A stretch of 46,449 nucleotides of DNA from Actinomycetota bacterium. Its GTDB lineage: Bacteria > Actinomycetota > Acidimicrobiia > Spongiisociales > UBA11373. Shown here one piece after another: positions 1,940-44,263 of this stretch; within the stretch, counting starts at the first letter, position 1; every line of letters starts with the position of its first letter. The translations under genes were made by a program, and so were the position numbers. Under the pieces are notes generated by a model, which was given only the letters and a program-made list of their open reading frames with translations, made no database searches and was not told where the DNA came from. Location of the stretch: NCBI GenBank assembly GCA_018821365.1, contig JAHJML010000003.1, positions 1 to 46,449 of the forward strand. Reading direction: 5' to 3'.

Positions 1940-4900
1940 GTGCTGCGAAGAACTCTTGTCGTGTTTGGTGCCTTGTCGCTGCTGCTGGCGACCTTGGCTC
2001 CGGGTGCCCTGGCCGAAGATAGGCCGGATGCCGACCTCACGGAGGCGGCGGGCACCGTCCGGTGGGTGTCCGGTTTCGAGGCTCCCAACTTCGCCAAGAG
2101 CGGGCGCAATCTCGTCCCGATCATCGTCAAACTGGACGAGCAGGCCGTCGCATCCTACGACGGCAGCGTCGCGGGGTTGGCGGCGACCAGTCCCGTCCTG
2201 CTCGGCCTCGACAAACTCGATGCCGACTCCGAAGCCGTCGTCTCCTACCGGGCCCACCTGGCCAACCGGCATGCGCTGTTCGCGGCATCGGCCCGGCGGG
2301 TTGCCCCACAGGCCACGGTGACCCACTCGTACGACATCGCCTTCGGCGGCGTCGCCATGATCGTCCCGGCGGACGCGATCACCGCCATCGCCAAACTCCC
2401 CGGGGTGGTCGCGGTGTACGCGGACGTTCGCCAGCAACTCGACACCGACCGGAGCGCCCAGTTCATCGGCACCGGCAGCCTGTGGAAGGAACTCGGCGGG
2501 CGGAAGTCGGCCGGTCAGGGCATCATCGTCGGCGTCGTCGACACGGGCATCTGGCCCGAGCACCCATCGTTCTCGGACCCCGATCCCAGGGGCAAGGCCT
2601 ACGCACCTCCGGTGTGGTCCGGTTCGGGCACCGGTGACGGTTGCGACTTCGGGGACACCGCCTACAACCCCAACGACGCACCGTTCACCTGCAACAACAA
2701 GTTGATCGGCGCCTACGACTTCACCGACACCTACAAGTTGCTCGAAGGCCTGCTGCCCACCGAGTTCGACTCGGCCCGTGACTCCAACGGGCACGGCACC
2801 CATACCACCTCGACGGCAGCCGGCAACGGCGCGGTCACCGCGACGCTGCTGGGCGTGAACCGCGGCAAGATCACCGGAATCGCTCCACGTGCTCACGTCG
2901 TGATGTACAAGGGTTGCGGCGAACTGGGCTGCTACGACTCCGACACCATGGCGTCCATCCAGCAGGCGATCCTCGACGGCGTCGACGTCATCAGCTACTC
3001 GATCGGCGGCGGCGACTCGCCGTATGGCGACGGCGTGTCGCTGTCGTTCCTCGACGCCTACAACGCCGGCATCCTGGGCACGCCCTCGGCCGGCAACGAC
3101 GGCCCCGGTGCGGACACAGTGGGGCACCGCGAGCCGTGGACGCTGACCGTGGGCGCATCGACAACGGACCGATCCTTCATCGGCTCGCTGATGCTCCGGG
3201 CCAACAACGGCGACACCCTCGAAGTCGAAGGTGCCTCCGTCACCGGCGGAATCGGCACGTGGACACCGGTGGTGATGGCCTCCGACCCCGAGTGCCACGA
3301 CACGATGGCGCCCGGGACCTACAGCGGCCAGATCGTGCTCTGTGACCGCGGCGACATCGACCGGGTGTTGAAGAGCTACAACGTCATGGAGGCCGGTGGG
3401 GGGGGCATGGTGCTGATGAACCTGGCGCTCCAGGGTCTCTCCACCGACAACCACTACATCCCGAGCATCCATGTCGAGGTCACCGAGACCAATGCCATCA
3501 AGGCCTTCATGGGCAGCCACACCCTCGTCAAGGGGCAACTCGTCGGGGGAACCGCCACCACGGTTCAAGGCGACCTGATGGCCGATTTCTCCAGCCGGGG
3601 CGGCCCGGGCCAGACCCTTGGGATCAGCAAACCCGACGTGGTGGCCCCCGGTGTGCAGATCCTGGCAGGCAACACCCCGATGCCGGAGACCCCCTCGGGG
3701 GGACAGCCGGGCGAGTTGTTCCAGGCCATCCAGGGCACCTCGATGGCGGCTCCCCACGCCGCCGGGACGGCGGCCCTGCTGCTGGCCGCCCACCCGGATT
3801 GGACCCCGGGCGAGGTCAAGTCGGCCATGATGATGTCGGCGCTGCGCAACGGTGTCGTCCAGGCGGACGGCACCAGGCCGGCCCGGCCGTTCGACCGGGG
3901 CAGCGGGCGGATCCGCCCCTCCGCTGCCGCCACGGTGCCGCTCACCATCTCGGACACGGGCGCCTCCTACCTGGCTCATGAAGACGACCTGTGGAACAGC
4001 AACTACCCGAGCCTCTACGTGCCGAGCCTGGCCGGTTCGATCACGGTGGAGCGGACGGTCTTCAACCAACGAGACACCGACCTCGACGTTACCGTCACGG
4101 CCTCCGGGCCGAACAACCTGGTGGTGACGGTGCAACCCAGCACGTTCACGCTCGGCCCCAACGGCTCGCCCTCGGCGACCCGCACCATCGAGATCACCGT
4201 CGACGCCAGCATGGTGCCGGTCGGCAGTGTCAGGCACGCCGCGTTGAGCTTCGAGGCCGACGAGCAGCGCCTCTTCTTCCCGATCACGATCGTCAAGGGC
4301 GTCCCCGATGTCACGCTCGACAAGACCTGCGCGCCGGCGAGTGTGCCACTCGGTGGCAAGGCCATGTGTGACATCGTGGTGGAGAACTACCTGCTGGACC
4401 CGGTGGAGGTCACGATCACGGATCTGCTGCCCCGCGGCATGATCCTGAAGGGCAACCAACCCGTTGTCGGAGCCGTCAAGGTCACTCAGAAGAAGTTGAC
4501 CACCACCGTGTTGCTCGATGCGGCGGTCCCGCCGCCGATCTTGGTGGCGGTCAACAACTTCGCATCACCGACGGGGTATCTCGACCTCTCCGGGTTCGGT
4601 CCGACGACGGTGAGCCTCACCGATGAGGCAATCGCGAACTTCTCCGTGCCCTCTTTCGAGTACGCAGGAGTGAGTTACGACGCCATCGGGATCGTCTCCA
4701 ACGGGTACCTGGTGCTCGGCGGCGGAACCGCCGCCGACGTCACCTTCATCAACTCGGATCTGCCCGATGCGGCGCTGCCCAACAACGTGCTGGCGCCGTT
4801 CTGGACCGACCTGAACCCGAGTGCCGGAGGGGACGTGTACATCGGACTCCTCACGGATGGATTCGACACCTGGATCGTCGTCGAGTGGCAAGCCGTCCCC

Positions 4901-5323
4901 AACTGGGGTGACGGTGAGCCGAACACCTTCCAGGTGTGGATCGGCCTGGACTCCGATTCCAACCCGTCGCAGGACATCTCCTTCACCTACGGGGCGGTCT
5001 CCGACGGCGACGGTGGGTTCCTGACGGTGGGGGCCGAGAACTACTCGGGCACCACCGGCGGCACCACCTACCTCGACGGCGCCGGCGCTCCGCCGGCACC
5101 TTCGTTCGGCGGAGGATCGGCCGCCTGCGACGGGGCATGGCCCGCCCCCCCCTGCTACGAAGTCGCCGTGACGGCGGGAGTGGGCGCCGCCGGCGGGACC
5201 CACACCATCAGCTTCATGGTCCGAGGCACCAGGGTGGGCACCTGGACCAACTGGGTCACCATGACCGGTGGGGACCTGGTCGGCATCGTGACCGACGGAT
5301 TCGACTTCGAGGTCACTCCGTAG
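1940..5323 (+). CDS. Secreted S8A subtilase (I9 propeptide, catalytic domain with PA insert, Fn3-like and C-terminal beta/NIDO-like domains)
   Basis: GGAGG RBS and signal peptide. Catalytic triad motifs VGVVDTG, DSNGHGTHT and QGTSMAAPH; also FSSRGG and KPDVVAPG. Confidence 0.95.
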   Translation: MLRRTLVVFGALSLLLATLAPGALAEDRPDADLTEAAGTVRWVSGFEAPNFAKSGRNLVPIIVKLDEQAVASYDGSVAGLAATSPVLLGLDKLDADSEAVVSYRAHLANRHALFAASARRVAPQATVTHSYDIAFGGVAMIVPADAITAIAKLPGVVAVYADVRQQLDTDRSAQFIGTGSLWKELGGRKSAGQGIIVGVVDTGIWPEHPSFSDPDPRGKAYAPPVWSGSGTGDGCDFGDTAYNPNDAPFTCNNKLIGAYDFTDTYKLLEGLLPTEFDSARDSNGHGTHTTSTAAGNGAVTATLLGVNRGKITGIAPRAHVVMYKGCGELGCYDSDTMASIQQAILDGVDVISYSIGGGDSPYGDGVSLSFLDAYNAGILGTPSAGNDGPGADTVGHREPWTLTVGASTTDRSFIGSLMLRANNGDTLEVEGASVTGGIGTWTPVVMASDPECHDTMAPGTYSGQIVLCDRGDIDRVLKSYNVMEAGGGGMVLMNLALQGLSTDNHYIPSIHVEVTETNAIKAFMGSHTLVKGQLVGGTATTVQGDLMADFSSRGGPGQTLGISKPDVVAPGVQILAGNTPMPETPSGGQPGELFQAIQGTSMAAPHAAGTAALLLAAHPDWTPGEVKSAMMMSALRNGVVQADGTRPARPFDRGSGRIRPSAAATVPLTISDTGASYLAHEDDLWNSNYPSLYVPSLAGSITVERTVFNQRDTDLDVTVTASGPNNLVVTVQPSTFTLGPNGSPSATRTIEITVDASMVPVGSVRHAALSFEADEQRLFFPITIVKGVPDVTLDKTCAPASVPLGGKAMCDIVVENYLLDPVEVTITDLLPRGMILKGNQPVVGAVKVTQKKLTTTVLLDAAVPPPILVAVNNFASPTGYLDLSGFGPTTVSLTDEAIANFSVPSFEYAGVSYDAIGIVSNGYLVLGGGTAADVTFINSDLPDAALPNNVLAPFWTDLNPSAGGDVYIGLLTDGFDTWIVVEWQAVPNWGDGEPNTFQVWIGLDSDSNPSQDISFTYGAVSDGDGGFLTVGAENYSGTTGGTTYLDGAGAPPAPSFGGGSAACDGAWPAPPCYEVAVTAGVGAAGGTHTISFMVRGTRVGTWTNWVTMTGGDLVGIVTDGFDFEVTP

Positions 5324-5352
5324 GGCCGTCCTGCCGAGCGGCATAGACAGGG

Positions 5353-5380
5353 ATCGGGGGCCGGGCGACCGGCCCCCGAT
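5353..5380 (+). terminator. Stem-loop terminator between convergent transcription units
   Basis: Perfect 12-bp inverted repeat ATCGGGGGCCGG-GCGA-CCGGCCCCCGAT with a GNRA loop, 30 nt after the subtilase stop. Confidence 0.7.
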
Positions 5381-5625
5381 ACGCGTCATCGGCCGCCGGC
5401 CTCAGCGGGCAGCAGTGGAGGCGCACCGGGCGGCCACCATCCACACCGGCATCGGTGAGGAACATGGGTGCGAGACCGCCCAGGTCCCCCCGAGTCGGAT
5501 CGGGGGAGGCGGCATCGTCGCCGGCGCGGCCGCGGCCGGCCAGACGCTCAACAGGATCAGCAGTGGGCAGAACAGGCGTCGCACCGCGGCAACCTACGCC
5601 CGCCACGATGTGGAGGGAAGGCCCT

Positions 5626-6753
5626 CTACTGCTTGGCGATCAGATCGAGGAACTCGGAACGGGTCCGGGTGTTGTCCTTGAACGATCCACGCATTGCCGA
5701 GGTGATCATCGACGAACCCTGCTTTTGGACCCCGCGCATCATCATGCAGAAGTGGGAGCCCTCCATGACGACGCCCACCCCGTGAGGGTCGAGCACCTCG
5801 GCGACGGCATCGGCCACCTGAGAGGTGAGGCGCTCCTGCACCTGGAGGCGGCGGGCGAACAGATCGACGATCCTGGCGATCTTGCTCAAGCCGATGATGT
5901 GGCGGTCGGGAACGTAGGCCACGTGCGCCCTGCCGAAGAACGGCAGCATGTGGTGCTCGCACAGCGAGTAGAACTCGATGTCCCTGACCAGCACCATCTC
6001 ATCGGTGTCGGCCTCGAACACCGCGTTGTTGACCACCTGCTCCAGGCTGCCGGTGTACCCACTCGTGAGGAAGTCCATGGCCTTGGCGACCCGCAGCGGA
6101 GTGCGGAGCAGGCCCTCGCGCTCGGGGTCCTCGCCCAACTCGATCAACTGGGCGCGAACGGTCCGTTCGTAGTCGGCGTCGTACACCTCGTTGGGGGTGA
6201 CCTCCTCCATCCGCCCCTCGAGGGCGTAGCGAGAGGTCTTGTTGATCGGGGCGATCTCGTGGGTCATCGGTCGGATCTCCTGCTCTGCCGCCAGACGGTC
6301 GGCGATCTGTCGGAGGGTGAAACCCGTCGAGGGCTCCGGCCATTCCGGGGCGATGTCGGCCATCGGCACGGCCAGATGTGCGAACCGGGCGACATCGGGA
6401 TCGGGGATGCCGGCCCCCTCGATCTCGGTGGCCATCCCCTCGATCATCACGATGTCGAGGTCGATGGTGCGGGGGGCGTACTTGTCGCCGGCTCGGTTCC
6501 GGCCCAGCACCGCCTCCACCCGGCGCAACTCGGTCCGCAGCGCCAACGGTTCGAGACCGGTCTCGATGAGGACGGCGGCGTTATGGAACTCGGCCTGTCC
6601 GGCGGGCCCCACCGCGGCACTCCGGTAGACGCGGCTGACGGCCAGGACGTTGAAGCACTCGTCCTCTTCGAGGAGTTCAATGGCGGCCGGGATGTGGTGG
6701 GCGGGTTCGATGTTGCTGCCCAGCGACACCAGCACCCGGTGCGAGGGGGTCAT
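5626..6753 (-). CDS. folKE: Bifunctional FolK (HPPK)-FolE (GTP cyclohydrolase I) fusion
   Basis: ATG at 6753 overlaps the folB stop (ATGA). N-terminal HPPK motifs 'VSLGSNI' and 'PRTIDLDI'; C-terminal GCH-I motifs '[14 protein letters not shown]', '[12 protein letters not shown]', '[10 protein letters not shown]', 'HFCMMMRG'. No stop between the domains. Confidence 0.92.
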
Positions 6754-7112
6754 CCCTCGTCCCGCCTGCGCCGGATGACCACCCCGACCGAGCGGGCGAA
6801 CCGCAGCGCCCCCGGTTTCTCGACGGCCACCTCCACCTCTGCGACCCTCTGATCGGCGTCGAGACAGATGCCGGCGATCTCGGCCACCAGGCGCTCCACC
6901 AGCATCGGATCGCCTGCTTCGATGTGGTCGATGATCGCCTTGGCGATGGTGCGGTAGTTGACGGCATCCTCGATGTCGTCGCTGACCGCCGCCGGGCGGG
7001 TGTCGGCCCACATGGTGACGTCGACGAGGATGTCCTGCGGTTTGGTGCGCTCGTCGGGATTGATGCCGACGATGCCGCGCACCAGCAGGCCGCGGATGAC
7101 GATCTGATCCAT
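6750..7112 (-). CDS. folB: Dihydroneopterin aldolase/epimerase (FolB/FolX family)
   Basis: '[31 protein letters not shown]', '[10 protein letters not shown]', 'LVERL', '[13 protein letters not shown]'. Confidence 0.9.
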
Positions 7113-7163
7113 GTCGCCAATGTACCGGGGTGCGGACGGTGCGGCGTGCCATGATCACCGGAC

Positions 7164-7982
7164 ATGCTTCTCATGGCCCAAGGCTTCCAAACCGATCCCG
7201 GCGTAGCCGGCGTGTGGGACTGGCCGGTCGTAGCTGCCTCCCTCTCCCTGGTCGCCGGGGCGATCTTCCTGTCCCGGTGGTTGGGTCTGGGGGTGGAACG
7301 ATCTCTGATCTGGGCCTCGCTGCGCGCCGCCGTCCAGTTGCTCGCCGTCGGTGCCCTGCTGGCCTTCATCCTGCGCTCCACCCTGCCCGACCTGTGGGCG
7401 TGGGCGTGGGTGGCCGTCATGATCGGTGTCGCTTCGTTCGTGATGGTCCGGCGCATGCCGTCCGCCCCGGGGGTCTGGGTTCCGGCGACCACCGCGGTGG
7501 GGTTGTCTACCGGGGCCGGCTTGGCCGTCGTCTTCGGATTCGGGGCAATCCCCTACGACCCCATCTCGGTGGTGGTGTTCGCCGGCATCACCATCGGCAA
7601 CGCCATGCCCCACGGCGTCCTTGCCGCCAAGCAGGTGATCGCCCAGGCCCGCGACCGTCCGGGCACGATCGAAGCACTGCTGGCAATGGGCTTCGATCGC
7701 GGCGGCATCGTCCGCTTCCTGGCCCCTGAGTCAGCGCGCATGGCCCTGATCCCCCAGATAGAGCGCACCAAGGTGGTCGGGTTGATCGCACTACCGGGGG
7801 CCATGACCGGACTCCTCCTGGCGGGCGTCGATCCGGTCGATGCCGTTGTCGTGCAGTTGCTCGTGATGTACCTCGTGCTGGGTGCTGCCGCAATCACGGT
7901 CATAGTGATGGTGCTGGCGGTGACCAGGTCCACGATCACGTCGCGGCTGCAGGTGGCCGACTGGGTGAGGCCCGGCGGATAG
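7164..7982 (+). CDS. FetB/YbbM (UPF0014) ABC-type permease
   Basis: '[10 protein letters not shown]', 'GITIGNAM', 'IEALLAMG', '[24 protein letters not shown]'; multiple TM helices. Confidence 0.88.
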
Positions 7983-7985
7983 CCG

Positions 7986-8714
7986 TCAGCGCAGGTGGGC
8001 GCCGCCGTCGATGCGGACGATCTCCCCGGTGATGAAGTCGTTGCCGAGCAGATGGAGGACGGTGGCGGCCACCAATCCCGGATCGCCGACCCGCCGCAGC
8101 GGTATCTCCTTGGCGAGCGCCTTCAGGTAGGCCGAGTCCCTGCCCGGCGGCGGCAGGATCGCCCCCAGCGCCACCGCATTCACCCGGATCCGGGGAGCCA
8201 GGTGCTCGGCGGCCGCCGCCGTGAAGGTGTTGATCGCCCCTTTGGCCACGATGTAGGAGAAGTGGTCCGAATAGGGGCGGGCGGTCCGCCAATCGGTGAC
8301 GTTGACCACCGCCCCGCCGAGATCGGCCGGGAGCGCCGCCGCAAACGCCTGGGTGAGGAACACCGGTCCGGTCAGGTTGACGTCCAGGGTCTGCCGCCAC
8401 CCCTCCGGGGTCACCCCGGTCAGCGAGTCTGTGGCGAACACGGCGGCGCTGTTGACCAGCACCCGCACCGGGGCCAGTTCACCGGCGCCCGCCACGATCG
8501 CGGCGGCGGCCGACGGTTCCGAGAGGTCCGCTCCGACCAGGGCCACCCTGCGCCCCATCGCCTCGATCTCGTCGGCAGTCTCCCGGGCGGCGCCTGCCGA
8601 AGATCGGTAGTGCAGCACCAGATCACAACCGGCTTCGGCCAGCGCCAACGCGATCCCCCTCCCGACCCGGTGGGCGCCGCCGGTGACCAGCGCAGTAGTG
8701 CCTGAGAGTTCCAT
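7986..8714 (-). CDS. SDR-family pteridine reductase (FolM/PTR1-like)
   Basis: 'VTGGAHRVG' with the Arg typical of pteridine reductases, 'LHYRSS', YxxxK (YIVAK), 'LAPRIRVNAVALG', 'DGGAHL'; sits next to folB/folKE. Confidence 0.8.
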   Translation of the reverse strand: MELSGTTALVTGGAHRVGRGIALALAEAGCDLVLHYRSSAGAARETADEIEAMGRRVALVGADLSEPSAAAAIVAGAGELAPVRVLVNSAAVFATDSLTGVTPEGWRQTLDVNLTGPVFLTQAFAAALPADLGGAVVNVTDWRTARPYSDHFSYIVAKGAINTFTAAAAEHLAPRIRVNAVALGAILPPPGRDSAYLKALAKEIPLRRVGDPGLVAATVLHLLGNDFITGEIVRIDGGAHLR

Positions 8715-8776
8715 GACCGCCGAGAGTAGCCCCGCGACGAGCCACCTCGCCCGGTGAAGCGACTACCGTTTCGTCC

Positions 8777-9421
8777 GTGTCACGTAGCGATCCCAAACAC
8801 GGCAGGTGGATCCTTCCGCTGATCATCGGCGGCATGGTGCTGCTCACCTACACCTTCGTGAGCACCCTGGAACCCACCGAGAGCGTCGACGTGACGGTGA
8901 CCACCGTCGACGAACCGCCCTTCCCGACCACCCCATCCTCGTCCACTTCGACGCTGCCACCTGATCTGGCCGCGTTCATGGTGACGGTGGACGTCTTCGA
9001 GACCCAGGCGACCGGGTTCGGCCAGCAGATCGTCGACATCAACGACGACTGGGAGGCCCGCTCGATCCAGTTCAACGAGGCCCGCACCAACTTCAACAAC
9101 GTCAGGGCGACCGTCGAGTTGTGGGAGCAGCAGGTGACCGATGCGGCCGCTGATGCCCCCGCCGCGCTCGCCGAGGAGTATGTGACCTTCGTCACCTCCA
9201 CCGCCGACCTGGCGCTGGCCATCGAGGACATCGTCCTGGGCCTCGAGGCGTCCGACGACGGCACTCTGCGCCGGGCCGCCGTTGCGGTGTACGCCGAAGA
9301 GATCCAGGACGTGCTCGACGCCATCCAGGCGATCCGGGACGCCGCCGATGCGGCCGCCGCCCCCACCGAGGACAGCACCGACACCACTGCGACGACTACC
9401 GGCGACGGCAGCAGCACGTAG
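8777..9421 (+). CDS. Hypothetical membrane-anchored acidic helical protein
   Basis: GTG start 7 nt after a TACCGT -10-like element; N-terminal TM, Thr/Ser linker, helical domain; host-like codon use. Confidence 0.7.
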   Translation: MSRSDPKHGRWILPLIIGGMVLLTYTFVSTLEPTESVDVTVTTVDEPPFPTTPSSSTSTLPPDLAAFMVTVDVFETQATGFGQQIVDINDDWEARSIQFNEARTNFNNVRATVELWEQQVTDAAADAPAALAEEYVTFVTSTADLALAIEDIVLGLEASDDGTLRRAAVAVYAEEIQDVLDAIQAIRDAADAAAAPTEDSTDTTATTTGDGSST

Positions 9422-9468
9422 CAGCGCATTTCGCCACGGGATCGGCCCGGGCGTTCCCCATCCCGCCG

Positions 9469-11333
9469 TCAGGCCGAACGAGGGATCGCTTCGGCGATGA
9501 CCACCCGGTTCCGCCCCGCGCTCTTGGCCTGGTAGAGCGCTCGATCGGCAGCGAGGATCAGGTCCTCGAGGGATCCGCCGTGATCCGGGAGGCCGCAATG
9601 CCGGCCGAAAGGGTGATGTGGCCGAGTTCCCGATCGGCGTGCCTGAGGCTCACCTCCGCCAGGGCCTCCCGAATCTGCTCGGCGCGCTGGGCAGACTGCT
9701 CGAGCGTCGCATCCGGGAGGATCACCGCAAACTCCTCGCCCCCGTAGCGACACGGGATGTCCTCGGCCCTGACCAGGGTTCGCAGCAGCCTTCCGAGGGC
9801 GCTCAGGGCAGCATCCCCCGCCCGATGGCCGTAGGTGTCGTTGAACTCCTTGAAGTGATCGAGGTCGAGCATGATCACACCCAGCGAAGTGCCGCGTCGT
9901 TCGGCGCGAGCCATCTCCCGTTCGAGGGACTCCTCGAGGTACCGGCGATTGAAGAGGCCGGTGATCGGGTCCCGAATCGACTGGGTCTGCAGCGTGTCGC
10001 GCAGCCGGAGGTTGGCGAGCGCCAGGGCGAGGTGGTCGGCGAAGGTGGCCGACAGTTGGTGAACCCGGGGCCAGGCATCCATCCACGACGGCCCGGCATC
10101 CGAGGACACCATGGTCAGCACACCGAGGTTCTCCCCCTGGGCGAGGAGCGGCAGGCACATCGACTGTCGGGGATCCACCGACTCCAGGTGCGGGCAGATC
10201 ACCCGCACCGCGTCGTCACCGAGGAAGTGGGGCTTGCCGCGGCGGAGCGCCCAGCAATCGGCCGGGTCGAAGACTGCAGCCCCCACCTCGCCGGCCCCCC
10301 AGACAACGACGTTCTCTGCGAGGTTGCGGGATTGGTTGATGAGGCCCACCGCTCCCACCCCCCTCGAGAACAGACGGCCGGCAAACGATGCGATCACCCG
10401 ATGGGCCTCGGCGGCGCCCTGAGAGGCCTGGAGCATCTCGCCCATCTCGCTGATCAGATCGGCCTCCTGCCCGAGCGCCTGGAGATCCTGGACCCGGCTC
10501 TCGAGCATCTGGTTGGCCTGCACCAGTTCGCCCTGGATTCGATGGTGCTCGCTCATGTCGATGATGGTCGCCGAGACGTGCACCCCGTCCCTGCCGGGGA
10601 GGGACGACAACCCGACGGCGGCGGGGAATCGAGTGCCGTCACGCCGCTGGCCGGTCAGGTTGCGATCCACTTGCAGCTGCCTCGTGCCGGCATTCCTCAT
10701 GAATTCGTCCCGCATGCGCACATGGGCCTCGCGGAACTCCTCCGGGATCAGGATCTCGATCGACTGGCCGAACAGTTGCTCCTGGGGGTAGCCGAACAAC
10801 TTCTCGGTCATCTGGTTGGCGAGGGAGATCGTTCCCTCACTGTCGATGATGACGATCCCGTTCGGGGCCGTCTCCACCAGCGTCCTGAACCACTCCTCCG
10901 ATCGCTGCAACCCCTGCTCCTTGAGCCTGCTGCGGGTGATGTCCCGGCCCACGATGTAGACCTGCTGCTCGGAGACATGGGCGGTCGCAGTCCAACTGAT
11001 CCACCGATGGGAACCATCCTTGTGGACGAGCCGATTGGCGAACTGGATGATCTCGCCGCCCGCTTCGATCCCCGAGAACGCCCCGACTGCCTCGTCCCGG
11101 TCGTCGGGATGGACGAGTTCGGAGAACCGGAGGGCGTAGATCTCATCGAGTGGGTAGCCCGTGGTCGTCTCCCAAGCCCGGTTCACCAGGCGGTGTCGGC
11201 CGTCGAAGCCGGTGATCGAGAGCAGGTCGGGTGACAGTTCGAAGAAGGCCGAAGGGTCCGGCGCGGTGGGTACCCGCCCGGGGGTGGGGCGGCGGGTGAA
11301 GGCAGCGATGTCGATGTTCGTCAGTTCGGTCAC
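9469..11333 (-). pseudogene. PAS-PAS-GAF-GGDEF diguanylate cyclase with a 1-nt frameshift near 9590
   Basis: Two PAS domains, a GAF-like region, 'IRDPITGLFNRR', 'DLDHFKEFND', RxxD (RAED) and RYGGEEF. The conserved tail 'PDHG...AADRALYQAKSAGRNRV' lies in another frame ending at 9469. Likely start GTG 11333 after AAGGA. Confidence 0.85.
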
Positions 11334-11414
11334 GGGCCTGTCCTTGCCGGAGAGGGCGGCAGACACCAGGAGTCTGTATCGGCTCCTTCGGCGATTCCTT
11401 GAACCTCGCCGGAT

Positions 11415-11702
11415 GTGTTCTCCCCCGCTTGCGGGGGAGACGCCCCCGCAGGGGGCAGAGGGTTACGAAGTGTTCTCCCCCGCTTGCGGGGGAGATGCCC
11501 CCGCAGGAGGCAGAGGGGGAGCACAAGCCTTCTGGTGGCGCGCCGTGTTCTCCCCCGCTTGCGGGGGAGATGCCCCCGCAGGGGGCAGAGGGAGAGCACA
11601 AGCCCCCTGGTAGCGCGCCGTGCGCGCCTCTGGATGAGCACCGCCCCCCTCTGGCCCCGGCCTGTTCGGCCGGGCCCATCTCCCCCGCTACGCGGGAGAG
11701 AG
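11415..11702. repeat. Cluster of REP-like double-hairpin elements (three minus-oriented, one plus-oriented)
   Basis: GTGTTCTCCCCCGCTTGCGGGGGAGA units start at 11415, 11470 and 11545; an inverted related unit lies at about 11643-11701. Confidence 0.9.
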
Positions 11703-11711
11703 AAGAGCCGC

Positions 11712-13133: not shown

Positions 13134-13177
13134 GGGGAAACTCCTGTTCGGTGTCACGTCGTTTCTACCCGATGGCG

Positions 13178-13215: not shown

Positions 13216-13278
13216 GGACCCGGTTGCACCTTCCCGGCGGAGGAGGCCTCCCGTACCATGGGCGGCCGGAGGTCATCC

Positions 13279-34939: not shown

Positions 34940-34975
34940 GATCCCACGATACCGGGGTCGGTAGTCTGAAGAACC

Positions 34976-36307: not shown

Positions 36308-38124
36308 GCACCGCCGGCCACGTCGACCACGGCAAGTCGACGCTGGTCCAGGCCCTCACCGGCCGCGACCCGGACCGCTGGGAGGAAGAGAAGCGGCGGG
36401 GCCTCACCATCGACCTCGGGTTCGCCTGGATGACGCTCGACGACGGCACCGAAGTGGGCTTCGTCGACGTCCCCGGTCATGAGCGGTTCATCAAGAACAT
36501 GCTGGCCGGGGTGGATGCCATCGACGCCGCCCTCTTCGTCGTGGCCGCCGACGAGGGTTGGATGCCGCAATCCGAGGAGCACCTGGCGGTGCTGGACCTG
36601 CTCGGGGTGGCCTCGGGCGTGATCGCCCTCACCCGCTGCGACGTGGTGGAGGAGGAACTCGCCGATCTCGCCGAACTCGAAGTGCGGGAGCAACTCGCCG
36701 GCACCTCACTGGCGGATGCCCCGATCCTCCGCACCGGGGCGCCGGCCGGGTTGGGGGTGGAAGCCGTCAGGGAGGCTCTCGCTGCTGCGCTGGGCCATGT
36801 GTCGTCGGGAGCGATCGGCCGGCCCCGGATGTGGATCGACCGATCGTTTACGATCGGCGGGGCGGGAACGGTGGTCACCGGCACTCTCCTCGACGGCCCG
36901 GTCGCCGTCGGCGACACGCTGGCCGTGTGGCCGGGTGCCCGGCCGGCCCGGGTCCGCAGCGCCCAGAGCCACGAGCAGTCCCACGACCGGATCGAACCGG
37001 GGACGAGGGTGGCGCTCAACCTGGTCGGCCTCGAACGGGGCGAGGTCGCCAGAGGCGCCATGCTGGGCCGGCCCGACGAGTGGCGCACCACCACCCGGTT
37101 CCTGGCCGACCTCAGGACCGTCCGCAGCCTCGACGAGCCGCTGCGGGACCGGGGCGCCTTTCATCTCCACGTCGGGAGCGGTTCGTTCCCGGCCCGCATC
37201 CGACTGGTCGACGACGCCGTGCTCGAGGGTTCCGGGGCGGCGGTCATCAGCGTCGACGAACCCCTGGCCCTCAAGACCGGCGATCGGTTGATCCTGCGCG
37301 AGGTGGGGCGGCGGGCGGTGGTGGCCGGCGGCACCGTGCTGGATCCCCAACCCCCGCAACGGGGCCAGCAGGTGCGGGCGGCGCTCCCCCGGCTGCGGGG
37401 GGCGGGCCCCTCTCCCGACGGCAAGGCCGATGCACTCCTGTCGGTGCGCGGCAAGGAAGATCTGGCCGATCTGGCTGCCGACACCGGTGGCGGCCGCCCC
37501 ACCGACGCTCTCATCATCGGGAGCATCGCCGTCTCCCGCGTCGAGGCGATCGGTCTCACCGACCGGGCGGTGGCCGGGGCGCAGCGGTTCCAGGAAGCCA
37601 ACCCACTCCGCCCCGGGATCCCCAAGTCGAGCCTCGCCGAGCAACTCGGCATCGGCCTCCCGATCCTGGAGGCTCTCGTCGAGGCCGACGATCGACTGGC
37701 AGACGATGGGCCGGTGGTCCGCACTGCCGGCTTCTCAGGTGGGCTCGACCAATCGGCGCAAGACTCCTGGGAGGCGGTCCGGTCCGACCTGCTGGCGGCG
37801 GGTTGGGGGGTTCCCCGCCGCAGCGAACTGGGACTCGACCCCGAGGTGGTCCATGCCCTCCTCCGCGACGGGACCCTGGTAGCCGTCGACGAGTTCGCCT
37901 ACCTGCCCGAGCAGTTGGACCGATTGGTGGAGCGGGTCATGGGGATGAGCGACGGCTTCAGCGTTGCCGACTTCCGCGACGAGTTCGAGGTCACCCGCAA
38001 GCACGCGGTGCCGCTGCTGGAGTGGCTGGATCGCAACCGGGTCACCCGCAGGGAGGGCGACCGGAGGGTGATCAGACGTTTGCCGCCCGGCGAGCCAGCA
38101 CCTGGCGGCGCTCCGTCTCGGTGA
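36295..38124 (+). CDS. selB: Selenocysteine-specific elongation factor
   Basis: '[11 protein letters not shown]', '[14 protein letters not shown]', '[15 protein letters not shown]', and C-terminal WH motif '[13 protein letters not shown]...TRREGD.R'. Confidence 0.96.
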
Positions 38125-38344
38125 GGGCCCCCCAGATGCCGTAGGGTTCGCGAATCTCGAGGGCGAACTCGAGGCACTCGGACTTCACCGGGCACACGTT
38201 GCAGATGGCCTTGGCCTTGTGCTCACGGCGTTCCCGTTCCTCCTTGCGCTCCACCGTGCTCGGAGGGAAGAAGAGGTAGGAGTGGTTTCCCCGGCACAGG
38301 CCGGTCCGCTGCCAGGAACGATCCATGGGTGCCAGACCCGCCAT
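38072..38344 (-). CDS. whiB: WhiB family Fe-S transcription factor (WhiB3/WhiD-like)
   Basis: 'WQRTGLCRG...LFFPP', 'AKAICNVCPV..ECL', 'EPYGIWG.LTE.ER'; AAGGA RBS. Confidence 0.92.
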   Translation of the reverse strand: MAGLAPMDRSWQRTGLCRGNHSYLFFPPSTVERKEERERREHKAKAICNVCPVKSECLEFALEIREPYGIWGALTETERRQVLARRAANV

Positions 38345-38410
38345 GTCCTTCTCCTCCGTGGGAAGCCGCAAGGGCGAAGCTACCAGCCGCCTCCGGAGAC
38401 CGCCAGGAAT

Positions 38411-39682
38411 TTACTGGGAGACCCTCGGCGCCCGCTCCACGTCGAGGATCACCCCGCGGACACCGATCACCGTGACCGGGTCCCCTTCGGCGATCTCGGC
38501 GGTCCGCCGGGTGATGGCCCGCCACCTGGCTCCATCGACCTCCACCAGGCCCTCGGGGTCGAAGGCACCGACGGCCACGCCGCTGGCGCCCACCAGGTGC
38601 TCCCGGCCGATGGTCGCCGTCGAGAAGCGCGACCTCGAGAGGGTGGTGAGAGCGAACCCGAAGAACAAGGCCGCCCCCACGGCCGTCACGACCACCGGCC
38701 ACCAGACCACCGGCATCTGCTTCCCGCCGTCGATGAGCGCCAACCCTCCCCACAGCAGCAGGCCGGTGCCGGCCAGGCTGGCGATCCCCAGGTCGTTGCG
38801 CTGGAAGTCGAAGACGTACAGCAGCAGGCCGAGGACGGCAATGGCGGCCGCCCACCAGTTGGTGGGAAGCACCGCCAACCCGTAGGCGGCCATCGCCAGC
38901 GAGATCGCCCCGACCGCGGCGGCGACCCCGGGACCGGCCGCATAGATCTCCAGCACGATCATGGCGATCCCCATCACGAGGAACAGGAAGGCGGCTTCGG
39001 GGCGAATTGTGATCCGCAGCGTCCTGGTCGCCATGCCCGGTTCCAGGAAGCGCACCTCGCCCGCCGGGGTGACGACGTCGGCGCCGTCGATCGTCTCTGT
39101 GGCGGCGGTGTCGAGGACGACCATCTCGCCGCCCACTTCGACCGTGGTCCCGTCGAGGCCGGTCACGAACTGCCCGATCGAGGGACTGACGATGTCGACC
39201 AGGCCGGGGATGGGGCGGTCGATCCGGACACGGCCGCCCATCAATGCGGCCGGAGCGGCTTCGAAGCGGGCGGCGACCACACCGGCGTCCCCGGCCGAGC
39301 CGATCACGGTCGGCGACAGGTATCCGATCAGCGTCCCCGGTGCCGCTCCCCGCAACCGGGCGGCCAGCAGCAACTGAGCGGCGCCGCCGTGGGCCACCGC
39401 CGGGGCAGGTCCCACCCACACCGCCACCGGGACCGGCGGGTCGGCCACCAGGGCCAGCAGTCCGTCGATGCCAGCGTCGAGCACCGCCGGAGCATCGACC
39501 TGCAGCACCACCAGTGAGGCCTCGCTGGTGGTGATGACGTCCTCCACGAAGTCGATCAGCCTGCCGTCGATGGGGCCGCTGATCTCCACCACGTCCACCG
39601 CAGCGGCGTCGGCGAGGGCCGGCGCCGCCCCCGACAGCAGCGCCGTGGCGACCAGCAGCAGTGGGAAGAAGGAACGTCGCAT
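38411..39682 (-). CDS. NfeD family membrane protein (long form)
   Basis: Signal peptide, ClpP-like N-domain, TM bundle, C-terminal OB fold 'G.VEVDGARWRA...GDPVTVIGVRGVILDV'. Confidence 0.85.
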   Translation of the reverse strand: MRRSFFPLLLVATALLSGAAPALADAAAVDVVEISGPIDGRLIDFVEDVITTSEASLVVLQVDAPAVLDAGIDGLLALVADPPVPVAVWVGPAPAVAHGGAAQLLLAARLRGAAPGTLIGYLSPTVIGSAGDAGVVAARFEAAPAALMGGRVRIDRPIPGLVDIVSPSIGQFVTGLDGTTVEVGGEMVVLDTAATETIDGADVVTPAGEVRFLEPGMATRTLRITIRPEAAFLFLVMGIAMIVLEIYAAGPGVAAAVGAISLAMAAYGLAVLPTNWWAAAIAVLGLLLYVFDFQRNDLGIASLAGTGLLLWGGLALIDGGKQMPVVWWPVVVTAVGAALFFGFALTTLSRSRFSTATIGREHLVGASGVAVGAFDPEGLVEVDGARWRAITRRTAEIAEGDPVTVIGVRGVILDVERAPRVSQ

Positions 39683-39749
39683 CGGCGTGCGGCATGTTAG
39701 GGAAGCCGGGGAGCCACTTCCCCCCCGCCGACTACAGTCGTCCCTGACC

Positions 39750-40130
39750 ATGAACATCCTCGTTGTCGCCGACGAAGCCTGGGTTCACCAGGAGGTGACC
39801 GCCGCCCTCGCCGAGGCGCGCTACCAGATCACCGCCGCCACTGATCCCTCCACGGTGGTCGATGCCTGCCGGGAAGCCGGAGCGGACGCCGTCATCACCG
39901 ACCTCCAGGTGGGTGCCATGGGCGGCATGGCCGTCATCCGCAACATCCGGGCCGCCATCCACGCCGGGGATCTCCCCCCCACCCCGACGGTGCTGCTGCT
40001 CGACCGGGGGGCGGACGTCTTCATCGCGGGCAGGGCAGGCGCCGACGGCGCGCTCCGCAAGCCGTTCGGTGCCTTCGAACTTCGCAGCATGCTCGACGGC
40101 CTCGTCGCCGCCGATGCCACCTCCTCATGA
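39750..40130 (+). CDS. Single-domain response regulator (atypical receiver)
   Basis: 'MNILVVADE', 'ITDLQ...GG', 'AGADG.LRKPF'. Confidence 0.85.
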   Translation: MNILVVADEAWVHQEVTAALAEARYQITAATDPSTVVDACREAGADAVITDLQVGAMGGMAVIRNIRAAIHAGDLPPTPTVLLLDRGADVFIAGRAGADGALRKPFGAFELRSMLDGLVAADATSS

Positions 40131-40176
40131 GAGCGCCCACGGAGCCTCCGAGACCTGATCCCCCCGGGGAACCTCG

Positions 40177-41433
40177 ATGACCAACCTGGAGATCGCCTAC
40201 CTGATCATCCTGGCGTTCTGCATCCTCGGGTCGGGCTTCTTCTCCGGTTCGGAGACCGCCCTGGTCTCGGTGCCCCGGGAGCGGGTGCTCCAGTTGCTCG
40301 AGACAGACAAGCGGGCAGCCCGGGTGGCGAACCTCATCGCCGATTCGGACCGCATGCTCAGCACCCTGCTGGTCGGCAACAACCTGGTCAACATCCTCGG
40401 CGCCTCGGTGGCGACCGTCCTGTTCATCGACCTGCTCGGTGAGGACTGGGGCCCGTGGGTGGCAACCGCGTCGGTCACCTCGGTGGTGCTGCTGATCGGC
40501 GAGATCACCCCCAAGAACCTGGCAACCCGGTTTCCGGAGAAGATCTCGCTGCTGGTGGCGCCGACGATCTGGAACCTCAGCAGGGTGCTGCACCCGGTCA
40601 CCCGGTTGTTCCTGGCCATGAGCCGGGGCCTGTTCCGACTCTTCGGGGTGGATCCCAGCAGCGGGCCCGCCCCGATCACCGAAGACGACATCCGGGTGAT
40701 GGCGGCCCTCGGCGAACGGGAGGGTGACATCGAGGCCGCCGAGCGCGACATCATCCACGCCGTCTTCGTGCTGGCCGACCGGCAGGTCCGCGAGGTCATG
40801 ACACCGCGCACGGACATCGTCACCCTCGACGACCCGGTGTCGATCGCCGACGTGCGGGCGGCCGTCTCGGCGAGCGGTCACAGCAGATTCCCGGTCATCG
40901 AGACCGACCTCGACGACGTGGTGGGGGTGCTCCATGTCAAGGATCTGCTCCGGATGCCCGGGGAGGCGTCGGAGGCCGACATCCGCCGGGCGCTGCGGGA
41001 GCCCACCTACGTCCCCGAGACCAAACCGCTGATGGAACTGCTCCACGAGATGCGGGCCCGCAGGAGGGCCTTTGCGCTGGTGCTCGACGAGCACGGCGGC
41101 GTCGAAGGACTCATCACCATCAAGGACATCGTCTCGGAACTGGTCGGCGAACTCCGGGATGAGTTCGACCCATCGGTGCCCGCCGTGGTCGCCACCGCCA
41201 CCGGCCACTGGGCGGCGGACGGACGGGTGCCGGTCGACGACCTGGACGCCGAACTGGGGGTCCGCTTCCCCGAGGGCCCCTACACCACCGTCGCCGGCCT
41301 GGTGCTCGACCTGGCCGGCCGAATCCCTCAGGAGGGAGACGCCGTCGAGAGCTGCGGGTACCGCTTGACGGTGACCGCCATGGACCGCAATCGGATCGAT
41401 CGGGTGCAGATCGAGCGTCTGCAGGACGTGTGA
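40177..41433 (+). CDS. Hemolysin/CNNM (DUF21-CBS-CorC) family protein
   Basis: 'SGFFSGSETAL', 'GEITPK', 'VMTPRTD', 'HSRFPV', 'DEHGG.EG.IT..D..ELVGE', CorC tail. Confidence 0.94.
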   Translation: MTNLEIAYLIILAFCILGSGFFSGSETALVSVPRERVLQLLETDKRAARVANLIADSDRMLSTLLVGNNLVNILGASVATVLFIDLLGEDWGPWVATASVTSVVLLIGEITPKNLATRFPEKISLLVAPTIWNLSRVLHPVTRLFLAMSRGLFRLFGVDPSSGPAPITEDDIRVMAALGEREGDIEAAERDIIHAVFVLADRQVREVMTPRTDIVTLDDPVSIADVRAAVSASGHSRFPVIETDLDDVVGVLHVKDLLRMPGEASEADIRRALREPTYVPETKPLMELLHEMRARRRAFALVLDEHGGVEGLITIKDIVSELVGELRDEFDPSVPAVVATATGHWAADGRVPVDDLDAELGVRFPEGPYTTVAGLVLDLAGRIPQEGDAVESCGYRLTVTAMDRNRIDRVQIERLQDV

Positions 41434-41465
41434 CCGCCGCCGCCGGGTAACATGGCCGCCCCACA

Positions 41466-41539
41466 CGGGACGTGGCGCAGTTTGGCAGCGCGCAGCGTTC
41501 GGGACGCTGAGGCCGCCGGTTCAAATCCGGCCGTCCCGA
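41466..41539 (+). tRNA. tRNA-Pro (anticodon CGG)
   Basis: Acceptor stem CGGGACG/CGTCCCG, anticodon arm CAGCG-TTCGGGA-CGCTG, T-loop GGTTCAAATCC. CCA is not encoded. TAACAT -10-like element upstream. Confidence 0.95.
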
Positions 41540-41541
41540 CG

Positions 41542-41569
41542 GAGGCCGGGCTCAGGCCCGGCCTTCTTC
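41542..41569 (+). terminator. Terminator hairpin after tRNA-Pro
   Basis: AGGCCGGGC-TCAG-GCCCGGCCT followed by TCTTC. Confidence 0.7.
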
Positions 41570-41676
41570 GCGTGGCGGGGGTCTCGGTGGACGTGCCCTA
41601 TCGCTTGCCGCGGTGGTACGGGGACATCCGGCCTCTATGCCGACGGCGACCTCGATGCCCCCATCACTGCGTCCCT

Positions 41677-42351
41677 CTAGCTGCGGGTCGGCGGCAGTTG
41701 GCTGATGATCCAGGAGATGAAATCACCGCTGCTTCGGGTCTGCATCCATACCCGCCCCGGCCCGGTGAAGTCGGTCACGAGGCCCTCGGCGCCCAGGATG
41801 GTCGACTTCCAACTACCGGCCTTGCGCACCGAGTACTGCACGGTGTCGTCGAAGGCCACGACGTGGCCGGTGTCGAGCGTGATCACCTCGCCCGCTCCCA
41901 GCGACTGCTGCAGGATCGCCCCGTAGGCCGAGATCAGCACCTCGCCGGATCCGGAGCAGCGCAGCAGGATCAGCCCCTCGCCGCTGAAGAACATCTTGCT
42001 CCCGCCCCACGTGGCGTCGACCTCGATCGACGGATCGGAGGCGATCCACGAGCCCGACTGCACCAACAGTGCCCCGGAACCGCCGATGGTGGCCAACGCC
42101 ATGTCCCCCGGCAGCGCCGGTGCGACGGCCACCGTCCCGCCCGTGGAGCTGCCGAAGTCGTTGACGAAGAAGCTCTCACCGCCGAGGCTGCGCTTGAGCC
42201 CCTTCAAGAAGCCGCCCTGCGTCGAGGTGCTCATCTGCACGTCGCCGCGGGTCATCGCCATGGCGCCCGCCTCCACCCTCACCGAACCGCCCGGAGGCAG
42301 CGTGATCTCACCGAACGCGAATGCCGGACCAGCCTTGATGTCTACTTGCAT
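41677..42351 (-). CDS. AIM24/TIGR00266 family protein
   Basis: 'EAGAMAM', 'GGESFFVN', 'APALPGD', 'FSGEG', 'DTGHVVAF', 'EGLV..FTGPGRVW.QTR'. Confidence 0.92.
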   Translation of the reverse strand: MQVDIKAGPAFAFGEITLPPGGSVRVEAGAMAMTRGDVQMSTSTQGGFLKGLKRSLGGESFFVNDFGSSTGGTVAVAPALPGDMALATIGGSGALLVQSGSWIASDPSIEVDATWGGSKMFFSGEGLILLRCSGSGEVLISAYGAILQQSLGAGEVITLDTGHVVAFDDTVQYSVRKAGSWKSTILGAEGLVTDFTGPGRVWMQTRSSGDFISWIISQLPPTRS

Positions 42352-42494
42352 GATCCGAGACTACGCGGCGCGGACCGGGGCTGTTGTCGGCGCTTCTCGG
42401 AGAGCCTTCGGTGGCAGAGGCAGACCGCCCGCCCCGCCGGGAGGCCCGCCGCGGTCACCAGGCCACCCGACGCCTCCCCCCGGTGCCGCCCCGG

Positions 42495-42547
42495 TTTTGG
42501 TCGCATCGACACCAACCGTGGTAAGGTATACGTCAGAATGACCAGTA
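42495..42547. promoter_or_regulatory. Two putative NrtR operator boxes
   Basis: 21-bp GT-N7-AC sites ttttgGTcgcatcgACaccaa (42495-42515) and tatacGTcagaatgACcagta (42527-42547) flank a TGGTAAGGT extended -10-like element; the second covers the ATG. Confidence 0.65.
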
Positions 42548-43281
42548 CCCCTCCATCAACCCCATCCGATTACGACCCCTCGCGCTTTCCCGCCTTTGCC
42601 GTGACGGTGGACATCGTGATCCTCACCATGTCGAGTGGGGCGCTCCACGTGCTACTGGTGCGCCGTGGTGAGGCGCCCTTCTGGGGCAGGTGGGCGGTCC
42701 CGGGCGGCTTCAAGCGCCCCTCCGAGACACTCGACGAGGCGGCTCGGCGGGAGTTGACGGAGGAGACGGGTGTCGACGCCGCCAGCGTGCTCAGGCAGTT
42801 CGGCGCCTACGGCGACCCCGGGCGCGACCCCCGCATGAACGTGGTGACGATCGCCTATGTGGCGGTGCTGCGTGACGTGGGGGCGATCGTGGCCGGGTCG
42901 GATGCTGCCGACGCCTCGTTGATCCCTGTGTCGGCGATACGGGACGGGGCCGTCGACCTGGCGTTCGATCATCTACGGATCGTCGGCGATGCCATAGAAC
43001 GGGTTCGCCTCGAACTCGACACGACCGGCATAGCCGCCGCCTTCGTGGGACCGACCTTCACCCTCGCCGAACTGCGCGCCGTCTACGAGGCCGTCTGGGG
43101 CGTGCAACTCGACGCCGCCAACTTCCGGCGCAGCATCGTCGGCCGGGATGAGTGGGTGATCCCCACCGGCAACCGCGCCCGGCCCGGGACCGCCGGTGGA
43201 CGGCCCGCCGAACTGTATCGGGCCGGCCGGGCGTGGGCCCGGGGCGGCCCCATCCATCGAACATCCAACGACAGGAAGTGA
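42538..43281 (+). CDS. nrtR: NrtR-family regulator (Nudix + wHTH)
   Basis: 'VTVDIVIL', 'WAVPGGF', 'AARRELTEETG', 'PGRDPR', 'LAFDH', 'FTLAELRAVYE', 'ANFRR', 'GRPAELY'. Confidence 0.9.
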   Translation: MTSTPPSTPSDYDPSRFPAFAVTVDIVILTMSSGALHVLLVRRGEAPFWGRWAVPGGFKRPSETLDEAARRELTEETGVDAASVLRQFGAYGDPGRDPRMNVVTIAYVAVLRDVGAIVAGSDAADASLIPVSAIRDGAVDLAFDHLRIVGDAIERVRLELDTTGIAAAFVGPTFTLAELRAVYEAVWGVQLDAANFRRSIVGRDEWVIPTGNRARPGTAGGRPAELYRAGRAWARGGPIHRTSNDRK

Positions 43282-43285
43282 CCCG

Positions 43286-44263
43286 ATGACGATTCCATCC
43301 ACGATGAAGGCGGCGGTCAGTGAGCGCTACGGGCCGCCGGAGGCGGTTCGGATTCAAGACGTGCCCGTGCCGGTGCCTTCGGACACCGAGTTGCTGGTCC
43401 GGGTCCGCGCCACGACCGTCAACCGGACCGACTGCGGGTATCGCGGCGCCAAGCCGTTCCCGATCAGGTTCTTCAGTGGGTGGCGACGGCCGAAGCGTCC
43501 GATCCTCGGAACCGAGTTCGCCGGCGAGGTGGCGGCGGCCGGCAGTGAGGTCACCCGCTTCGAGGTGGGTGACCGCATCTGCGGCTACTGCGAAGGCACC
43601 TTTGGAGCGCACGCCGAGTACATGACGATCGGCGAGAAGAGGATCATCGCCAGGATCCCTTCCCACCGCAGCTTTGCCGAGGCAGCGCCCAGCACCGAAG
43701 GATCCCACTACGCCCTCGGAATGCTGCGCCGCGCCGGGGTGCAGTCGGGAGATGCCGTGCTCATCAACGGCACCACTGGGGCCATCGGTTCGGCCGCGGT
43801 TCAGATCGCCAAGCGCATGGGCCTGATGGTCACCGCGGTGTGTGACACCGCCCACGTCGAGATGGTGAGGGGCCTCGGGGCGGACCGGGTGATCGACTAC
43901 CTGAAAGAAGATTTCACCAAGGACGGGCAGCGCTACGACCTCGTCCTCGACGCCGTCGGCAAGAGTTCGTTCCGCCGCTGCCGGCGCCTCCTGAAGCCCA
44001 AGGCGATCTACACCTCTTCGGATGTGGGCTTCATGTGGCACGGGCCGCTTCTGGCGCTCATCACCCCGCTGTTCCGCGGCCGCAAGCAGATCTTCGTGGT
44101 CCCCAAGCCGGACCCCGAGGGGATCCTCTTCCTGGTCGGCCTCATCGAAGCGGGCGAGTTCACCCCGGTCCTGGATCGGGAGTACCCACTGGACCGGATC
44201 GTGGAAGCGTACCGGTACGTGGAGACCGGCATGAAGGTGGGGAACGTCGTAGTGGTGGTGTGA
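43286..44263 (+). CDS. NAD(P)-dependent MDR oxidoreductase (quinone oxidoreductase-like)
   Basis: 'YGPPE', 'ILGTEFAG.V', 'GAHAEY', 'INGTTGAIGSAAVQIAK', 'LGADRVIDY'; no structural-zinc Cys cluster. Confidence 0.92.
   Translation: MTIPSTMKAAVSERYGPPEAVRIQDVPVPVPSDTELLVRVRATTVNRTDCGYRGAKPFPIRFFSGWRRPKRPILGTEFAGEVAAAGSEVTRFEVGDRICGYCEGTFGAHAEYMTIGEKRIIARIPSHRSFAEAAPSTEGSHYALGMLRRAGVQSGDAVLINGTTGAIGSAAVQIAKRMGLMVTAVCDTAHVEMVRGLGADRVIDYLKEDFTKDGQRYDLVLDAVGKSSFRRCRRLLKPKAIYTSSDVGFMWHGPLLALITPLFRGRKQIFVVPKPDPEGILFLVGLIEAGEFTPVLDREYPLDRIVEAYRYVETGMKVGNVVVVV

Follow-up and report, generated by a model that had tools for sequence, protein, structure and literature searches.

Scarcity of G/C-flanked AGCT in an uncultured actinobacterial genus: a probable footprint of long-lasting restriction-site avoidance

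The restriction enzyme AluI, which comes from a high-GC actinobacterium, cuts AG^CT, and its companion methylase M.AluI places 5-methylcytosine (m5C) in the same word. Methylation-linked mutation can alter word frequencies, as in the CpG-like erosion of m5C and in the word biases (CTAG/CCWGG) that go with very-short-patch (VSP) repair in E. coli. That prokaryotic genomes avoid restriction sites was reportedly described by Gelfand and Koonin in 1997 and by Rocha et al. in 2001. Rusinov et al. (2015, PMC4687349) report that prokaryotes avoid the sites of orthodox Type II systems and read such avoidance in relatives lacking the system as the trace of a lost one. Among eukaryotic viruses, AGCT is reported to have been eliminated in the clade-A pandoraviruses by an agent that is at most suspected (Poirot et al. 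2019, bioRxiv 10.1101/712018). Here, we analyse a stretch of 46,449 nucleotides from an uncultured member of the Acidimicrobiia, within the Actinomycetota (the window, by which we always mean the whole stretch) in which the tetranucleotide AGCT is scarce. We consider it probable that selection has long acted against AGCT, chiefly as SAGCTS (S, G or C; W, A or T), in the genus from which this DNA comes, the likeliest agent being one or several orthodox Type II restriction-modification (R-M) systems either lost or left out of the genome bins.

The window is contig C58 of the assembly G000 (2.92 Mb in 318 contigs; 99.2% complete and 2.8% contaminated by markers). Expected counts were taken from an order-2 Markov model for the window and from synonymous codon shuffling within genes for coding sequence. 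Under the Markov model the whole window holds 30 AGCT where 85.1 are expected (observed/expected ratio, O/E, 0.35), and both AACT (107 vs 52.1) and AGTT (103 vs 56.1) are about twofold over. Codon shuffling of the 27 genes in the range 1940-44263 (33,237 bp, 500 shuffles) gives 90.3 expected AGCT (sd 5.9) against the 19 observed, a count that none of the 500 shuffles reached, with AGTT at 68 vs 42.9 and AACT at 90 vs 52.1. The scarcity that a sequence-only reading of this DNA had reported thus holds under both kinds of control. That reading had also remarked that GAA, CAA, AAA and TTG are used mainly where the alternative codons would create AGCT. Among the 90 Glu/Gln/Lys-Leu pairs of the window genes, 5 are spelled NAG|CTN, 53 NAA|CTN, 30 NAG|TTR and 2 NAA|TTR, whereas before codons other than Leu the ratio of NAG to NAA is 839:142, in agreement with the remark. 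All eight of the strings it had quoted occur at or near the positions given for them, its NAA|CTN and NAG|TTG examples lying in a subtilase gene. It was too generous on two points. The depletion was called window-wide, which is true of positions 1940-44263 (21 sites, 0.50 per kb) but not of the last 2.2 kb (44264-46449), which are undepleted at 3.66 per kb. Of its per-gene counts, four AGCT in the subtilase gene and none in selA and selB are correct, but the glutamine synthetase gene has one rather than none. The four sites left in the subtilase gene all lie in codon frame 0, as a Ser AGC followed by a codon starting with T (we write frame 0 for AGC|T, frame 1 for NAG|CTN and frame 2 for NNA|GCT). 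The terminal segment, with an NHL-repeat gene at 45123-46025 (G+C content at third codon positions, GC3, 0.77; 7 AGCT), is probably recently acquired DNA and serves as an internal contrast to the AGCT-poor remainder.

The depletion extends over the genome. The overall AGCT O/E of 0.53 in G000 describes a mixture: it is diluted because 77 mostly short contigs with a GC below 0.66 (258 kb in total) have an O/E about 1 (0.88-1.18), against 0.37-0.54 in the other contigs. These 77 contigs are either mis-binned or recent islands; two of them have a GC of about 34-35%. On the contigs that we call native (GC at least 0.66; 241 contigs, 2.66 Mb), AGCT occurs 2217 times where 5117 are expected. DNA of probably recent arrival is undepleted at the end of the window and on the low-GC contigs, and AGCT density may serve as a practical marker in the G000 bin that tells native DNA from newcomers and from mis-binned contigs. 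Codon shuffling of 1782 native genes shows the deficit in every frame (336 observed vs 950 expected in frame 0, 1141 vs 3864 in frame 1 and 113 vs 224 in frame 2), with a total O/E of 0.32. Non-coding DNA is affected too: 490 short gaps between genes (67.8 kb) hold 54 AGCT vs 116.5 expected (116.0 ± 9.4 in second-order simulations), and no other tetramer with an expected count of 25 or more has so low an O/E there. The loss is thus seen in every codon frame, in non-coding DNA and, as detailed below, on both strands alike, the pattern of a pressure that acts on the DNA itself.

The word avoided is mainly SAGCTS and not plain AGCT. All ten NAGCTN classes are under expectation in native G000 DNA, but unequally: in coding sequence SAGCTS stands at 738/3583 (O/E 0.21) and AGCT with one W flank at 817/1351 (0.60) under codon shuffle, and the genes of G002, another species of the genus, show the same pattern (19/106 and 22/46). 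In the pool of distant relatives described below, the same two classes are at 1.01 and 1.05. The intergenic gaps of G000 are more clear-cut, with 9/64.1 (0.14) when both flanks are S, 38/43.8 (0.87) when one is W and 7/7.5 (0.93) when both are W. A four-base specificity of the AluI type, as the sequence-only reading had proposed, does not agree with these intergenic counts, depletion being confined there to the G/C-flanked sites. A single 6-bp site of the SacI, PvuII or HindIII type was also considered and is ruled out: all ten classes are low, and the non-palindromic pair GAGCTG/CAGCTC (O/E 0.20 in G000 genes) is as depleted as the palindromes GAGCTC (0.25) and CAGCTG (0.15). On the sense strand, words are about as scarce as their reverse complements (CAGCTC 0.22 and GAGCTG 0.20; AAGCTC 0.68 and GAGCTT 0.59), in keeping with a protein of two-fold symmetry that reads double-stranded DNA. 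When 1498 hexamer classes were compared with the distant pool, the most depleted ones contained either CGCG or AGCT followed by G or C. The footprint thus yields a predicted specificity, SAGCTS, for its agent.

The depletion is specific to one lineage, being present in the genus and absent from distant relatives. G001 and G002 are the other two species of the genus of G000, and all three assemblies are metagenome bins, 97-99% complete by markers. Under the order-2 model, AGCT O/E is 0.29 in G002 (47/162.1 over 80 kb) and 0.61 in G001 (78/127.9 over 66 kb). A search with the glutamine synthetase (GlnA) as query returned 80 loci, of which 76 of at least 5 kb from other genomes were scored: 75 have an O/E of 0.75-1.60, and the lone exception, at 0.54, is the nearest locus (L015, 83% GlnA identity). 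For other genera in the family the values are mostly 0.65-1.1, with outliers in the 20-kb samples of G025 (0.50) and G011 (1.48), and for other families of the order 0.86-1.41. When tetramers are ranked by the ratio of G000 to its relatives, AGCT comes lowest of all. The codon-shuffle totals tell the same story: 0.32 in G000, 0.26 in G002, 0.47 in G001 and 0.77 in a pool of relatives that are close but belong to other genera, some of its loci coming from metagenome-assembled genomes (MAGs) of unconfirmed family. The distant pool, made up of 32 high-GC loci (467 genes) from farther away, has odds ratios (ORs) for AGCT that range from 0.78 to 1.84, with no avoidance. These comparisons bear on one rival, namely that there is no specific cause and that we are looking at a bias in codon pairs or dinucleotides that is generic to high-GC Actinomycetota, or at an artefact of the MAG. 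CTAG and CGCG are scarce too, and the value of 0.77 means that close relatives outside the genus are mildly AGCT-poor, as a generic bias would have it. However, unaffected high-GC genomes are near or above an OR of 1 in every frame, with hexamer O/E values at 1.01-1.05, intergenic DNA is depleted as well, and three assemblies from the genus, independent of one another, all show the depletion, so that we find this rival hardly credible.

The signal is also old, as had been supposed from the window alone. Orthologues of G000 and G002 share about 74% protein identity (36 pairs), and their four-fold degenerate sites are identical at a frequency of 0.517, vs 0.395 if they were independent (5805 sites, 32 pairs); about four fifths of the silent sites have therefore been randomised. 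Of 57 conserved Glu/Gln/Lys-Leu pairs, 3 carry AGCT in both species, vs 1.79 by chance. Because both species hold a three- to four-fold deficit (O/E 0.26-0.32) despite this randomisation, we infer that the pressure against AGCT continued in both lines after their split, a rough indication of age and not a dated estimate.

How was AGCT lost, by mutation or by selection? The sequence-only reading had put forward, as its preferred mechanism, erosion by a persistent AluI-like m5C methylase that might be an orphan and whose product AG(m5C)T would deaminate to AGTT and AACT. Sites would then disappear faster than they are re-created. AGTT (3964 vs 2566) and AACT (3820 vs 2399) are in fact the two most over-represented tetramers under the G000 codon shuffle, and depletion is strongest in frame 1, where both products of deamination are silent. 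Yet the Glu/Gln/Lys-Leu pairs have only four synonymous spellings, NAG|CTN with AGCT, NAA|CTN with AACT, NAG|TTR with AGTT, and NAA|TTR. In the G000 codon shuffle, the frame 1 deficit (4116-1379 = 2737) is mirrored by an excess of 2816 in AGTT plus AACT. The excess of the two words is thus forced by the genetic code and carries no evidence on mechanism, since any force against AGCT would produce them; the same caveat applies to similar findings elsewhere, AGTT and AACT being the sole synonymous escapes from NAG|CTN.

The two other frames are more informative. In frame 0 and the S-flanked context, about 519 Ser AGC|T are missing from G000 while AGT|T stands at 150 vs 86 expected (+64). The corresponding ORs are 0.14 for AGC:TCN, 0.08 for AGC:AGT and 1.74 for AGT:TCN, the last little different from the 1.57 of the unaffected distant pool. 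The AGC shortfall is made up by TCN, codons that lie beyond the reach of one C->T change; this is the proportional redistribution expected of selection and not what a raised C->T rate would predict. In frame 2 both deamination products are non-synonymous, and NNA|GCT is nonetheless depleted, with an OR of 0.56 overall, 0.27 in the top quarter of genes by GC3, and 0.37 in the S-flanked form NSA|GCT|S vs 1.36 in the distant pool. That the two words mark m5C deamination is therefore not supported. Differences between frames were considered as separate evidence for deamination and largely set aside, the flanks explaining most of them: AGC|TC and AGC|TG have ORs of 0.13-0.15, like frame 1, AGC|TT and AGC|TA 0.38-0.43, and AAG|CTS 0.23-0.32.

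The search for the enzymes gave no better support to erosion. No match to the C5 methylase family PF00145 was found in G000, G001 or G002, and 8 of 61 genomes of the order have one. A profile built from 8 C5 methylases of relatives and run unfiltered against 25,302 six-frame segments of G000 returned a best E of 0.052, whereas three held-out C5 fragments used as positive controls scored 1e-45 to 1e-52. For Vsr, which the sequence-only reading had proposed to look for along with an M.AluI-like methylase, the search within the genus covered G000 alone and gave no match, and neither did that for the D12-class methylases (PF02086) in G000. (The 61-genome tallies given here and below for C5 and orphan methylases take in G040, flagged as unpublished; no other result rests on it.) The responsible gene was rightly placed outside the window. 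Taken together with the codon evidence, these negative searches make erosion by m5C an unlikely main cause.

Only two DNA methylases were found in G000, and a single one, the orphan beta-class enzyme, in G001 and G002. The gene of this orphan sits between sugar-transport genes and a LacI-type regulator, so labelled from the sequence by eye, and cytosine-N4 methylases are among the enzyme's best relatives with a solved structure. Across the order, 56 of the 61 genomes have it, at 51-82% identity (70-82% across the family), and the region between its catalytic and S-adenosylmethionine motifs, which presumably sets specificity, is nearly invariant and carries no change specific to the genus. It therefore looks like a core enzyme of the housekeeping type, and its presence in undepleted genomes together with the conserved specificity region rules it out as the cause. 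The second methylase of G000, of the gamma class, was rejected because it stands beside an XhoI-family endonuclease gene on a low-GC contig rich in insertion sequences (IS) and itself contains AGCT (Table 1). This contig, C253, measures 9.2 kb with 65% GC; an IS21 element splits the XhoI-type pair and an IS4/5 transposase adjoins it. The site CTCGAG is not clearly avoided in G000 (0.98 by the order-2 chain, 0.74 by the maximal order), which fits a recent arrival of the system. A C5 methylase followed by a Vsr-like endonuclease does exist in two members of the family, G007 and G015, on DNA with 63-64% GC; these cassettes, whose loci are AGCT-rich, are uninformative about the loss of AGCT.

A different kind of agent has to be weighed at this point: a vertically inherited, non-canonical component of the core genome, be it a nuclease or defence system that has escaped recognition and marks self in another way, a repurposed orphan methylase, or an RNA endonuclease cutting AGCU. 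Such a cause would account for a pressure that outlasted the near-saturation of synonymous sites in two species, for the lack of a genus-specific DNA methylase in three 97-99% complete assemblies and for SAGCTS matching no specificity known to us. Conversely, the palindromic, strand-symmetric pattern with its symmetric flanks points to a dimeric protein on double-stranded DNA, unlike an RNA target; the orphan methylase is unchanged in the genus and shared with undepleted genomes; and binning by composition tends to drop the islands on which R-M genes reside. We regard this alternative as improbable. One might speculate further, at the price of a rather improbable assumption, that the genus has a stable, inherited and unrecognised system against SAGCTS without a methylase of its own from a known family, self-protection coming, for example, from the scarcity of sites, from a mark other than methylation or from partnership with the orphan methylase.

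A restriction-type cause, which the sequence-only reading had listed among its options, remains in our opinion the best reading. One orthodox Type II R-M system, or a succession of systems sharing one target, would act on the genus, and occasional self-cleavage would make each site slightly deleterious. Sites would then be lost through the cheapest change available: Glu/Gln/Lys-Leu pairs could only turn to AACT or AGTT, Ser codons before T would move to TCN, NNA|GCT would take other wobble bases, and intergenic sites could become any neighbouring word. The agent would be a restriction enzyme whose genes have been lost or lie on mobile DNA that escaped binning. Composition-based binning of MAGs tends to lose islands of foreign composition carrying R-M genes, so that absence from the three bins is not absence from the cells.

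Several observations weigh against this explanation. (i), the search recovered no cognate pair of restriction endonuclease and methyltransferase in G000, G001 or G002, all of them metagenome bins from which mobile DNA may be missing; a cause that outlasts synonymous saturation should be inherited vertically and thus be visible in bins that are 97-99% complete. (ii), we know of no enzyme with the specificity SAGCTS. (iii), the S-flanked ORs are uneven between frames (0.10 in frame 1, 0.14 in frame 0 and 0.37 in frame 2). (iv), in a one-parameter selection fit, GAG|TTG is observed 1012 times vs 658 and GAA|CTN is overpredicted, and NAG|CTG is depleted slightly more than NAG|CTC. (v), in 522 intergenic gaps AGTT plus AACT number 179, vs 150 expected by an order-1 and 163 by an order-2 model, the distant pool being at 0.79 by order 1; the two words could hold a third to two thirds of the missing intergenic AGCT, with wide uncertainty. 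The points under (iv) and (v) also fit erosion, and a minor contribution of C->T mutation to the loss of AGCT is possible. As a full explanation, a resident m5C methylase is in our judgement quite improbable.

AGCT is the most lineage-specific of the scarce palindromes of G000, CGCG and CTAG being depleted besides. CGCG is about as depleted as AGCT, in a wider group: 201 vs 425 in the window (order-2), 0.38 in G000 genes and 0.61 in the close pool outside the genus (codon shuffle), 0.44-0.92 in single genomes of the family (order-2), 0.55-0.88 in other families of the order and about 1 in distant Actinomycetota. Measured against the distant pool, the strongest depletion of any hexamer falls on ACGCGT, CGCGCG and CACGCG. 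The scarcity of CGCG may be a second and older footprint of palindrome avoidance. Separately, A/T-rich tetramers in G000 genes are well below the synonymous shuffle (TTAA 18 vs 237, TAAG 78 vs 695, ATAA 68 vs 558): rare codons ending in A or T shun A/T neighbours, a general context bias distinct from the AGCT signal. The gene content of the window is ordinary housekeeping, with the subtilase, FolB, GlnA, a GGDEF protein, glycosyltransferases, an aldehyde dehydrogenase, Mrp/ParA, M23 peptidases, SelA, SelB and others; the features referred to above are located in Table 1.

Table 1. Location of the segments and genes discussed in the text; positions without a contig or locus name are those of the window.
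Feature	Location	Strand	Remarks
Native AGCT-poor DNA	1..44263		22 AGCT in 44.3 kb (1 before 1940, 21 in 1940-44263); about 0.5 per kb vs about 1.8 expected (order-2 Markov)
Subtilase gene (Peptidase_S8, PA, fn3_6)	1940..5323	+	4 residual AGCT: 2993, 3374, 4247, 5210
Glutamine synthetase gene	11712..13280	-	One AGCT, at 11728; query for related loci
selA and selB genes	34976..38124	+	Zero AGCT
Compositionally atypical window end	44264..46449		GC 0.637; 8 AGCT, 3.66 per kb, 7 of them within the NHL-repeat gene
Orphan beta-class methylase gene (289 aa, SPPY motif)	G000 C290:5759-6625 (locus L001:1462-2331)	-	No endonuclease neighbour
XhoI-family endonuclease gene	G000 C253, locus L130:2742-3512		
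Gamma-class methylase gene (604 aa, Eco57I/N6_Mtase, NPPY)	G000 C253, locus L130:5911-7725		7 AGCT in gene
IS21 element splitting the XhoI-type pair	L130: istB 3412-4212, istA 4209-5777		
C5 methylase (440 aa), then Vsr-like endonuclease	L087 (G007:C1:1422591-1426643)		Gene with NERD or REase-ARP domain downstream
Same C5 methylase-Vsr cassette as L087	L088 (G015:C10:52798-56844)		

The case of G000 is a new instance of the known phenomenon of restriction avoidance, with its defining features except the cognate genes. Like the footprints described by Rusinov et al. (2015, PMC4687349), it consists of an under-represented palindrome that is scarce in close relatives too and not in recent DNA, with the cognate genes absent. 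It differs from them in that the word behaves as a degenerate hexamer, SAGCTS, and not as a plain 4-mer or a single 6-mer, in that two species have retained the signal past the near-saturation of their silent sites, and in that no candidate system was found in any of three congeners. With AluI it shares the central tetranucleotide AGCT, but not the C5 methylase, which is missing from the three assemblies, nor the indifference to flanks, A/T-flanked intergenic AGCT being undepleted. Unlike CpG erosion or the VSP-repair biases, the codon tests on Ser in frame 0 and Ala in frame 2 favour selection, and neither the required C5 methylase nor, in G000, Vsr was found. As reported for the clade-A pandoraviruses, the same tetranucleotide has been lost genome-wide through silent changes, the agent being at most suspected; those are eukaryotic viruses with near-complete loss, whereas we describe a bacterial chromosome with a 3- to 5-fold depletion and a preference for flanks. 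We consider the case to be of moderate interest for its degenerate target, for its persistence past nearly randomised silent sites and for the lack of a candidate in three near-complete bins. It provides a clean and well-controlled footprint of the restriction type in an uncultured actinobacterial lineage.

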